Part shown: one piece after another, positions 22,643 to 23,563 of the stretch
How positions within the stretch are numbered: position 1 is the first letter of the stretch
Layout: each line of letters begins with the position of its first letter
NCBI GenBank assembly: GCA_035280265.1
Contig: DATEGE010000143.1
Span: 2,307-66,306, forward strand
From: Gemmatimonadales bacterium
GTDB taxonomy: Bacteria > Gemmatimonadota > Gemmatimonadetes > Gemmatimonadales > GWC2-71-9
Length of the DNA: 64,000 bases
Direction of reading: 5' to 3'
Notes under the pieces: model-generated
Seen by the model: the letters and a program-made list of their open reading frames with translations, nothing else
What the model was told of the DNA's origin: nothing
Databases searched by the model: none
Position numbers and translations under genes: made by a program

Positions 22643-23563
22643 TCAAACGGTGCAGGTGTTCACGGCTTCGCGCAGAGAAGTGAGCGGGTCGCGCGTCGGG
22701 GTGAATTCGTGAGCCAGGTATCCCTGGAAGCCGGTGTCGGCGATCGCGGTCGCGACGGCGCGCCAGTTGAGCTCTTGGGTGCCGTCGAGCTCGTGGCGGC
22801 CCGGCACGCCACCGGTATGGAAATGCGCGATCCATTCGTGATTGTCGCGGATCGTGCGGATGATATCGCCTTCCATGATCTGCATGTGATAGATGTCGTA
22901 CAGCAGCTTGACACGCGGCGAGCCCACCGCTTTCACCACGGCTACCCCGAAGGCCGTGTGGTCGCCCTGATAGTCGGTGTGGTCCACCTTGCTGTTCAAG
23001 AGCTCGAGACAAATCGTGACGCGGTGCTGTTCGGCGAGCGCCTTGATCGCATTGAGTCCGACGACGCAGTTGTCGATCGCCTCCGCGTCGCTCTTGCCGC
23101 GGCGATTGCCGAACATCGCGATCACGTTGGGAACGCCGTGTTGCGCCGCGGCCGGAATCGTGGCTTCGAGTTCCCGCAACAGCATCGTGTGGTTCGCGCG
23201 ATCGTTGAAGCCCGTGGGGATGAAATCGCGACGCGCCGTCGGATAGCCCATGGAGCACACCAGGCCTGACTGGCGCACCGGATCCCAATCCTCGGGCTGC
23301 AACAGATCGATCGCCGCGAGCCCCATCCCTGCGGCGGCTGTGCAGAAGTCGGAGAGGGGAATGTCGTGATAAGGCCAGCGGGAGACGGATTGCTTCATTC
23401 GGACTGTCGGACCGTCGGACGGTCGGACCGTACCAAGGCGCAAAGGCTCGGGTCTGACGTCCGCTGGGAGGATCGCGGCGGCGAACACGCCCGCCGATGC
23501 CGCCAGGGCCTCACGGCGCGTGACTGGTCGGCCGTCCGACCGCCCGACTGTCCGACGCGGCAT
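22643..23563 (-). CDS. xylose isomerase-like TIM-barrel protein (hydroxypyruvate isomerase / sugar phosphate isomerase-epimerase family), possible Tat signal
   Basis: MKQSVSRWPYH...ICLELLNSKVDH...IAHFHTGGVPGRHE. ATG 23563 gives MPRRTVGRSDGRPVTRREALAASAGVFAAAIL. An alternative start at ATG 23398 gives no signal. Confidence 0.8.
   Translation of the reverse strand: MPRRTVGRSDGRPVTRREALAASAGVFAAAILPADVRPEPLRLGTVRPSDGPTVRMKQSVSRWPYHDIPLSDFCTAAAGMGLAAIDLLQPEDWDPVRQSGLVCSMGYPTARRDFIPTGFNDRANHTMLLRELEATIPAAAQHGVPNVIAMFGNRRGKSDAEAIDNCVVGLNAIKALAEQHRVTICLELLNSKVDHTDYQGDHTAFGVAVVKAVGSPRVKLLYDIYHMQIMEGDIIRTIRDNHEWIAHFHTGGVPGRHELDGTQELNWRAVATAIADTGFQGYLAHEFTPTRDPLTSLREAVNTCTV
23399..23556. repeat. inverted pair of GTCGGACN / GTCCGACN octamer arrays bracketing the putative Tat-signal coding segment
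   Basis: Arm 23399..23430 is TCGGACT GTCGGACC GTCGGACG GTCGGACC G. Arm 23526..23556 is GGTCGGCC GTCCGACC GCCCGACT GTCCGAC. The arms are about 75-80% complementary. Confidence 0.85.

Follow-up and report, generated by a model that had tools for sequence, protein, structure and literature searches.

The short tandemly repeated repetitive (STRR) sequences of filamentous cyanobacteria are built from tandem 7-bp units, the inverted arrays of which are able to form hairpins between genes such as hupS and hupL. The function of these sequences is unknown, a part in transcript stability or translational coupling having been suggested (PMC2670836). Repeats with units of 5-11 nt occur sporadically in bacteria, according to the work of Mrazek and colleagues (2007) as it is summarised in PMC4679880, and heptamer repeats of TAACTGA have been found in Beggiatoaceae, Cyanobacteria and Bacteroidetes (PMC4679880). 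The present analysis concerns an octamer, GTCCGACN, which is repeated in tandem at several places within 64,000 nt of DNA (the window; assembly GCA_035280265.1, contig DATEGE010000143.1, positions 2,307 to 66,306) from a Gemmatimonadales metagenome-assembled genome, the G+C content of the window being 65-72% (about 68%). The GTCCGACN arrays belong to a class of short tandem repeats, hitherto undescribed, which extends across the Gemmatimonadales. No description of repeats of this kind in Gemmatimonadota was found in the literature.

A pattern of two GTCCGACN units, allowing at most two mismatches, matched 19 times in the window, compared with 2.25 +/- 1.7 matches expected from 100 dinucleotide shuffles, none of which attained 19. 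As stated in the initial annotation of this DNA, arrays are present at five places with three to four units of the octamer or its complement at each, and the accompanying observation that these copies sit at protein termini, linkers and loops was confirmed. All five are in frame within genes, as judged from Pfam matches and orthologues. The arrays and the gene that carries two of them are listed below.

8611..8641, plus strand: octamer array of four units in the C-terminal loop of an amidohydrolase, read as PSDRPAVRPSD
22643..23563, minus strand: hydroxypyruvate-isomerase-like TIM-barrel gene of 306 aa (from Pfam, orthologues and translation)
23398..23428, minus strand: gene-sense 3' arm of the TIM-barrel gene, (GTCCGACN)x4 on the minus strand, coding for TVRPSDGPTVR and adjoining (M/L)KQSVSRWPY
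23429..23533, minus strand: inter-arm segment of 105 nt, with the translation GRPVTRREALAASAGVFAAAILPADVRPEPLRLGT, a Tat-like (twin-arginine translocation) signal
23534..23556, minus strand: gene-sense 5' arm, (GTCGGACN)x3 on the minus strand, coding for RTVGRSDGR between the ATG and the twin arginine
32642..32672, minus strand: octamer array of four units in the HisKA loop of an NtrY-like histidine kinase, read as GRTVGQSDNRT
49790..49812, minus strand: octamer array of three units forming the last 8 codons of AroH, read as RSDGRTVGP and then a stop

With respect to orientation, GTCCGACN lies on the plus strand at 8611-8641, 23534-23556, 32642-32672 and 49790-49812, and its complement lies on the plus strand at 23398-23428. 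Three of the four octamer loci of the window are single arrays that have no inverted partner. When the sequence is written out, (GTCCGACN)3 proves to be free of stop codons in all six frames, whatever the base at the variable eighth position, and copies that fall in tolerant segments can thus survive in frame. Three units take up 24 nt, or 8 codons; the residues specified are small and polar (V, R, P, S, D, G, T) and are read as V-R-x-S-D-x-P-T from one strand and as x-R-T-V-G-x-S-D from the other. These two readings are represented by 7 and 8 gene-internal copies respectively (VRPSDxPT vs xRTVGxSD), and since both orientations are read in genes, the array is, as had been proposed, a feature of the DNA and not a selected peptide.

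The extent of the family was determined by scanning one genome per species, 185,579 species in total, for three exact units, and at least 118 loci were recovered. Gemmatimonad assemblies contributed 97 of the 118 listed loci, with the rest scattered among Acidimicrobiia, Streptomyces, Opitutales, Microcoleus and others, these proportions being approximate and applying to the matches listed. Among 2.9 million viral contigs there were 7 array matches, and the window as a whole gave no match to Rfam at gathering thresholds. The 97 listed Gemmatimonad loci and the window together hold 154 arrays of 3-20 units each, the context of which was classified by a frame test (G+C at third minus second codon positions, GC3 minus GC2) and not by a gene finder. 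In this test 15 arrays were gene-internal, including that of a histidine-kinase orthologue (L020) which has its array at the same place; a further 15 were followed by a stop codon at a distance of no more than 90 nt, and many of these ran straight into it as '...SDGRTVGP-stop' in the manner of AroH; 70 had no coding frame on either side; and 54 were ambiguous, the majority of these being upstream of gene starts. The family is mostly non-coding or ambiguous in context, and the presence of all five window arrays in genes is therefore atypical. Thus the claim that the arrays are always in frame within coding sequence applies to the window and not to the wider family, and the related view that they are something other than ordinary intergenic repeats could not be maintained, most of the 154 arrays being intergenic or ambiguous. 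Longer octamer arrays, of 12-20 units, were also seen (L005 4220-4366, L072 1786-1880, L031 3601-3751 and L084 568-726); they come from one genome each of Acidimicrobiales and Microcoleus and from some genomes of Gemmatimonadaceae, and their GTCAGAC/GTCTGAC variant units are often grouped at one end.

Many of the arrays are found in inverted pairs of a fixed polarity. All 27 octamer arrays with an inverted partner within 300 nt were of the form (GTCGGACN)n-loop-(GTCCGACN)n and 0 were of the reverse form, with loops of 6-145 nt. When 28 octamer pairs were set side by side, only the arrays were common to them, the loops and flanks being unrelated, and the arrays are therefore not a fixed-sequence mobile element. 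The likeness to Rickettsia palindromic elements that the initial annotation had put forward is not supported, for the same reason, there being nothing in common beyond the arms. Tandem Repeats Finder, run on all the DNA analysed (1.23 Mb), returned 519 short arrays, along with 70 pairs of inverted arrays. In 65 of these pairs the 5' arm had more G than C, in 2 it had more C than G, and in 3 the amounts were equal (p = 3e-17). Non-octamer pairs, which involve 26 different consensus units, had the G-rich arm 5' in 27 cases vs 2, and plain hairpins were G-first in only 96 cases vs 59 C-first. With regard to location, 31 pairs lay between co-directional genes, 11 between convergent genes and 2 between divergent genes. 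The window itself contains the following hairpins made from other units.

7388..7485, no strand assigned: heptamer hairpin (AGGGACT)n...(CCCCAGT)n, spanning from the stop of the upstream gene to the ATG of the amidohydrolase
27549..27671, no strand assigned: decamer hairpin GGTGGAGGAN / CCTCCACCNN, in the apex of the plain hairpin of L199 and L215
51724..51809, no strand assigned: heptamer hairpin of inverted arrays, (GAACGCG)n...(GTTCCGC)n
54763..54847, no strand assigned: second decamer hairpin, the 5' arm of which equals that of 27549-27671 at 22/24 bases, with an unrelated loop (read by eye)

The position of the hairpin at 7388-7485 is kept in L204, L205 and L206, and the family of that at 51724-51809 is present at two L199 sites that are empty in the window. 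Elsewhere, L065 3594-3714 and L071 7647-7725 are orthologous octamer hairpins with loops of 67 and 17 nt, placed between convergent genes that both run into an arm and stop just past it. The 134-nt loop of the octamer hairpin at L033 6606-6739 holds an unrelated palindromic repeat, GTCATCCCGAGCGGAGCGAGGGA...TCCCTCGCTGCGCTCGGGATGAC, and in this case hairpin loops seem to accept nested repeats. Canonical intrinsic terminators were considered as an identity for the array hairpins and were rejected, with a T-run following the arm in only 4/64 pairs.

The TIM-barrel gene is the window locus at which the octamer arrays form an inverted pair. On the minus strand its 5' end consists of ATG CCG C, (GTCGGACN)x3-4, 105 nt, (GTCCGACN)x4 and ATG AAG CAA (M K Q); a degenerate fourth unit extends the 5' arm to about 23529, and both arms are within the N-terminal 55 codons. 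It had been claimed that the pair at 23398-23556 brackets a Tat-like signal, and the enclosed 105 nt do code for GRPVTRREALAASAGVFAAAILPADVRPEPLRLGT. The arms were also found to pair as suggested, although the 75-80% complementarity first given for them was too low, the measured values being 85% over 27 nt and 91% over 23 nt. Pairing of the arms is present in both the minimum-free-energy and the centroid RNA folds, the fold z-score of the whole 191 nt across them being only -2.2. At its N-terminus the window protein has a twin arginine and a hydrophobic stretch, TRREALAASAGVFAAAIL. Nearly all of the 120 best TIM homologues have an N-terminal signal followed by GRLKQSVSRWPY, and nearly all have RR and a hydrophobic region ahead of GRLKQSV. 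No match to a Tat-signal profile was obtained in Pfam or NCBIfam searches of the window proteins; the motif, together with its conservation in orthologues, points to a signal that is Tat-like.

The presence of this signal bears on where the gene begins. Two alternative starts, ATG 23563 and ATG 23398, had been envisaged, and this was not supported, with the signal present in nearly all 120 homologues. From the signal in nearly all orthologues, ATG 23563 is the likely true start; it occupies 23563-23561 and shares TGATG with the stop codon (23565-23563) of the TIM-barrel gene that lies upstream (23563-24411). The internal ATG 23398 is there because Met in the window genome replaces the Leu of other orthologues. 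The deposited record P0002 (251 aa, 22643-23398) begins at this internal ATG, omits the signal and is probably truncated. Only a few of the 120 homologues are annotated short, from the KQSV position, as in the window genome's own record; gene calls on related contigs give the long form (299-306 aa), and in the near-identical strain L214 (99.88%) the gene is called at 306 aa. The GC3 periodicity of the N-terminal extension was 0.78/0.67/0.73, values made uninformative by the arrays and by codons rich in Ala and Arg.

Orthologues of the TIM-barrel gene carry arrays at the same two places, that is in the ATG-to-VTRR interval and immediately ahead of RLKQS, and five different unit types were found at these places, given here as the 5'/3' arms.

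GTCGGACN/NGTCCGAC: window, L199, L201, L125
GTCGGATG/ATCCGACA: L202
GGCGGATN/NATCCGCC: L123, L132, L136
GTTGGAAN/NTTCCAAC: L127
heptamer GGGAAGC/GCTTCCC: L124

In every array-bearing orthologue examined the 5' and 3' arms were complementary to each other, and a matrix of duplex energies, in which the 5' arm of one orthologue was set against the 3' arm of another, was block-structured by unit type. The two arms have thus changed together. L202 has GTCGGATG at the TIM locus and keeps the canonical CGGACGGT, in four copies, at another locus; the change of unit was therefore local and not genome-wide. The retention of complementarity and position argues for either constraint or homogenisation. The variable eighth base was mirrored between partner arms at 0.48 vs 0.50 between unrelated loci, and since there is no excess the partner arms are not recent exact inverted copies of each other. 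Recent exact copying from arm to arm was accordingly dropped as an explanation. Array-free orthologues are common and more distant, with signals that occupy the position equivalent to the inter-arm segment of the window and are too diverged for comparison at the level of bases; near-identical TIM proteins with different arms were not present among the 120 cluster representatives.

Other structures were noted at the same sites. The array-free orthologues L120-L122 and L128 have a small plain hairpin, CCCACGC-TTCA-GCGTGGG, at the site of the 3' arm of array-bearing orthologues, about 40 nt ahead of the LKQ codons. Arrays may grow from this hairpin as from a seed, or it may be a structure that is conserved. 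In the more distant orthologue L187 (1563-1599) the linker that joins the signal to the mature domain holds (CCGTTCA)x5, a heptamer array read as PFTVHRSPFTVH; in this instance the TIM signal-to-mature linker draws arrays of unrelated units.

Replacement of one array by another, in place, was observed within the amidohydrolase gene (7487-8683), in which the Amidohydro_3 match spans the octamer array. The 120 orthologues are all 395-419 aa, nearly all of them 396-399, and the same loop of 13-14 codons is made up of (CCTCTACCGA)x4, a different decamer, in L204 and (GACCGCCCTC)x3 in L206. Since orthologues of equal length carry other arrays, the octamer array represents no net insertion at this site. 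The amidohydrolase genes of L216 and L206 show 16 differences over 1197 nt, all of which are inside a patch of 28 nt that is an octamer array in one and a decamer array of equal length in the other. Octamer-type loops are scattered and do not form one group, as judged from nearest neighbours by sequence distance and not from a tree. In the histidine kinase (32119-33312) the HisKA match spans the array, which is in the loop following the H-box helix. The array-derived loop peptide is present in 120/120 of the best orthologues, its length kept and its decay varied, and no array-free site was found among them. The clean in-frame insertion expected from the initial annotation was thus seen at neither of these genes, given the equal length with other arrays in the first and the ubiquitous peptide in the second.

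There was one clean filled/empty case, at the junction that follows the GMC oxidoreductase gene, where the window has the following empty form.

20903..20921, minus strand: single-unit 'empty' junction, GTGA CGGACGGT GTGAGCC, from the GMC oxidoreductase stop to the next start; L201 is alike

At this junction L202 has exactly +24 nt (3 units), in frame, as VTDG-RTVGRSDG-VSRRD, and L199 has a heptamer hairpin instead. In AroH (49785-50186) the array comes after the CM_1 domain, of which residue 121 is the last, the stop overlapping the GTG of the next gene as GTGA; tails of the form 'SDGRTVGP-stop' occur at other loci too. Within a gene, a step of one 8- or 10-nt unit would shift the frame, and both the addition of 24 nt and the length-neutral swap thus suggest events in which several units change in a single step, by which arrays in genes would be gained or exchanged. 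On a shorter time scale the arrays are stable. L214 and the window, one pair of strains, are 99.88% identical over 15,004 nt, with 18 substitutions, none of them within arrays, and 0 gaps; the histidine-kinase array and the TIM arms are unaltered between the two. Since array length has not changed at this identity, they are not hypervariable. Among syntenic genomes of about 85% identity, whole hairpins are present in some and absent from others, and the window's decamer hairpin at 27549-27671 is a case of growth inside a plain hairpin that was already there. No target-site duplications were seen, the filled and empty heptamer-hairpin sites being too diverged at this identity to resolve them.

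On balance we lean towards an account in which the arrays are STRR-like hairpins of tandem repeats, spread through replacement or expansion on a template and tolerated in genes as the octamer is free of stops. The GTCCGACN arrays would be one abundant family in a Gemmatimonadales-wide class of tandem units of 7-10 nt, the usual form of which would be a pair of inverted arrays, the 5' one G-rich, able to fold into a long hairpin at the boundary of a gene, with single arrays occurring as well. There would be no fixed cut-and-paste unit; arrays would arise, enlarge and overwrite each other in place by templated copying, for which recombination or template switching are the likely routes, the homology being supplied by another array or by a unit-like seed. 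Of these events, selection would spare within genes only the ones that preserve the frame and fall in tolerant segments, such as the N-terminus before the twin arginine, the signal/mature linker, the HisKA interhelix loop, and C-terminal loops and tails. At the TIM locus complementarity of the arms has been retained while the unit changed several times among orthologues. Both the templated mechanism and the formation of hairpins in vivo are what we infer, and a role of the hairpins in transcript ends, transcript stability or gene coupling may be envisaged.

Several observations weigh against templated turnover as formulated above. The eighth-base result (0.48 vs 0.50) weakens simple template switching from arm to arm, and the G-first polarity is left unexplained. 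One unit recurs at very many loci, and the two decamer hairpins of the window share about 22/24 arm bases; some copying between loci must therefore exist. No donor for the patch exchanged between L216 and L206 was found among all loci analysed. Moreover, the DNA downstream of the amidohydrolase differs by 4% between these two, recombination therefore being active there, and the patch could be a very short tract of allelic recombination and not ectopic copying. The approximate nature of the taxonomic proportions and the use of a frame test for the coding context must be counted here as well.

Of the alternatives, the one that survives best is that of a selected RNA hairpin, which at the Tat signal would tune initiation or coupling, ribosome pausing or stability, the intergenic pairs acting as terminators or as processing or stability elements. 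The survival of complementarity through several changes of unit at the same two positions, the stem in both types of fold, the excess of convergent over divergent sites (11 vs 2) and the keeping of position in genomes 20-25% apart in protein, for example upstream of the amidohydrolase, are all consistent with it. However, the z-score is only -2.2, and all units of both arms alter together, which suggests homogenisation at the level of DNA and not independent compensatory substitutions. In addition, three of the four window loci are partnerless single arrays, array-free TIM orthologues are common, a T-run follows only 4/64 pairs, and Rfam gave no match. We consider it possible, if doubtful, as the main explanation; it is compatible with templated turnover and does not exclude it.

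Somewhat less likely is a non-autonomous mobile element, of the type of REPINs (hairpins formed by repetitive extragenic palindromic (REP) doublets), miniature inverted-repeat transposable elements (MITEs) or Rickettsia palindromic elements, in which the arms would be terminal inverted repeats served in trans by a transposase (REP-associated tyrosine or HUH), with in-frame insertion of copies into genes. Such an element would be in keeping with many dispersed copies of one unit in one lineage, with a strictly fixed polarity of the arms, as expected of terminal inverted repeats, with their ability to form a hairpin, and with presence or absence at orthologous sites of syntenic genomes. In contrast, however, only the arms are common to the copies, the spacers (6-145 nt) are unrelated, and the arms vary from 3 to 20 units. 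The same architecture is built by at least 26 other units, and the spacer of the TIM gene, which codes for a Tat-like signal where array-free orthologues have theirs, looks like pre-existing host sequence, as judged from position and composition. One array replaces another without change of length, and at one junction a unit already in place has been expanded by exactly 3 units. Target-site duplications were not seen, with filled and empty sites at 85% identity too diverged to resolve them, and arrays are nearly absent from viral contigs.

The polarity can be addressed in another way. Inverted arrays that are G-first have the geometry of head-to-head telomere fusions, and it could be imagined that an active, directional 'repeat-writing' process exists, in which a polymerase, reverse transcriptase or repair pathway adds G-rich short tandem repeats to 3' ends or writes over short segments through templated synthesis. 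We regard this as improbable, slightly more so than the mobile element; if true, it would account jointly for the polarity, the same-length swap and the uncopied eighth base.

Selection on the encoded peptide, with the DNA repeat as the by-product of a flexible linker of Pro/Ser/Asp/Arg/Thr, would be in line with the confinement of arrays to loops, linkers and termini and with the kept length of the histidine-kinase loop peptide in 120 orthologues, but the data on orientation, together with the copies between genes, largely refute it, and it is very improbable: the two orientations give unrelated peptides at about equal frequency, the copies have the same codons, at least 70/154 arrays have no coding frame on either side, and the amidohydrolase loop takes very different peptides from other arrays. 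Equally remote is a switch, be it a contingency locus in which gain or loss of one 8-nt unit shifts the frame, or an inversion of the 105-nt segment toggling the signal, for which the inverted arms do flank a segment that is a multiple of three and open across the opposite strand, but the 99.88%-identical strain shows no gap over 15 kb and leaves the histidine-kinase array and TIM arms unchanged, window arrays have 3-4 copies only and are in housekeeping genes, the signal is forward in all array-bearing orthologues examined, loops in the family go down to 6 nt, and open antisense frames are common at 68% G+C.

These results have consequences for annotation, the first of which is the correction of a gene model, the deposited 251-aa TIM protein being probably without its secretion signal. 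More generally, a phylum of mostly uncultured soil bacteria has an undescribed repeat system that gene finders, start calls and repeat maskers will mishandle. The in-frame copies indicate that repeat DNA can rewrite protein loops and N-termini with the gene surviving. The polarity, the changing together of the arms and the 28-nt swap bear on how short tandem repeats originate and spread in a transposase-free manner, a question that has been standing for cyanobacterial STRRs since 1990.

Some further features of the window and its relatives were noted in passing. At 24451-24663 on the minus strand, alone between argG and the TIM genes, there is an open reading frame (ORF) of 70 aa like the C-terminal end of a GMC oxidoreductase (HDVKNLFLTDGA...NPSITYMALTAR); the segment is missing at the syntenic site of L199, and L214 calls a 66-aa gene there with a weak GMC_oxred_C match. 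This ORF is probably a gene remnant. At 13648-13883 the window is longer than L199 (about 5200-5300) by about 170 nt, which form a long inverted repeat, gtgcagcgtgggggtggggc...gccccacccccacgctgcac, and include a motif, GGGCGCTTTACACGCGAGGGCG, that is found again elsewhere in L199; the segment is a candidate for a further dispersed element or a small RNA. A PCYCGC-domain gene of 133 aa is present in L199 (5309-5710) and L215 (15110-15511) and is not at the syntenic spot of the window (28233-28251).

With regard to known systems, STRRs are, by analogy, the closest described kind, the likeness consisting of arrays of short tandem units at many loci and of inverted arrays that form intergenic hairpins. 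The general attributes of STRRs and long simple sequence repeats were all found here, namely head-to-tail units of 5-11 nt in at least 3 copies, an abundance far above chance, and many loci in a restricted lineage, and exact GTCCGACN arrays occur in Microcoleus genomes too, among the matches listed. In contrast to STRRs, the present host belongs to the Gemmatimonadota, at about 68% G+C, and the units are of 7, 8 and 10 nt with the octamer dominant; the two are thus analogues from different phyla with different units and not the same families. With long simple sequence repeats and TAACTGA repeats the present arrays share a lineage-sporadic abundance of one tandem unit, a location near start codons and the lack of an evident mechanism of transfer (PMC4679880). 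TAACTGA sets, however, are direct (one indirect repeat has been reported) and intergenic, whereas in Gemmatimonadales inverted pairs are a main form and copies are translated.

REP sequences, bacterial interspersed mosaic elements (BIMEs) and REPINs resemble the present hairpins as dispersed hairpin repeats at gene 3' ends and within operons, in inverted doublets of fixed polarity, and such doublets were found here at 27 vs 0 for the octamer and 65 vs 2 for all units. REPs, however, are single imperfect palindromes of conserved sequence with a fixed spacer and a link to REP-associated tyrosine transposases (RAYTs); here neither a conserved spacer nor a conserved palindromic monomer sequence was found, the spacers of 6-145 nt being unrelated and the arms made of 3-20 units. 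Rickettsia palindromic elements, reportedly described by Ogata and colleagues in 2000 as units of 100-150 bp that have a consensus for the family and are cleanly inserted when compared with orthologues, are likewise tolerated in frame in genes without disturbing the fold. In the present case, in contrast, only the 8-nt unit is common, no consensus of a whole element (about 100-150 bp) was present in 28 octamer pairs, and two gene-internal cases are without net insertion. Mycobacterial interspersed repetitive units (MIRUs), said to have been described by Supply and colleagues in 1997 as tandem units of 40-100 bp at operon junctions in which overlapping stop and start codons are kept, find a parallel in the overlaps kept here at AroH (GTGA), TIM/TIM (TGATG) and the GMC oxidoreductase (GTGA), but differ in the size of their units (40-100 bp) and in having no arrangement of inverted arrays. 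To our knowledge, in-frame copies, a strict G-first polarity, arms that change together and the replacement of units in place have not been described for STRRs, and as far as is known to us the in-frame copies, strict polarity, arms changing together and array-for-array replacement set the Gemmatimonadales arrays beyond the known families.

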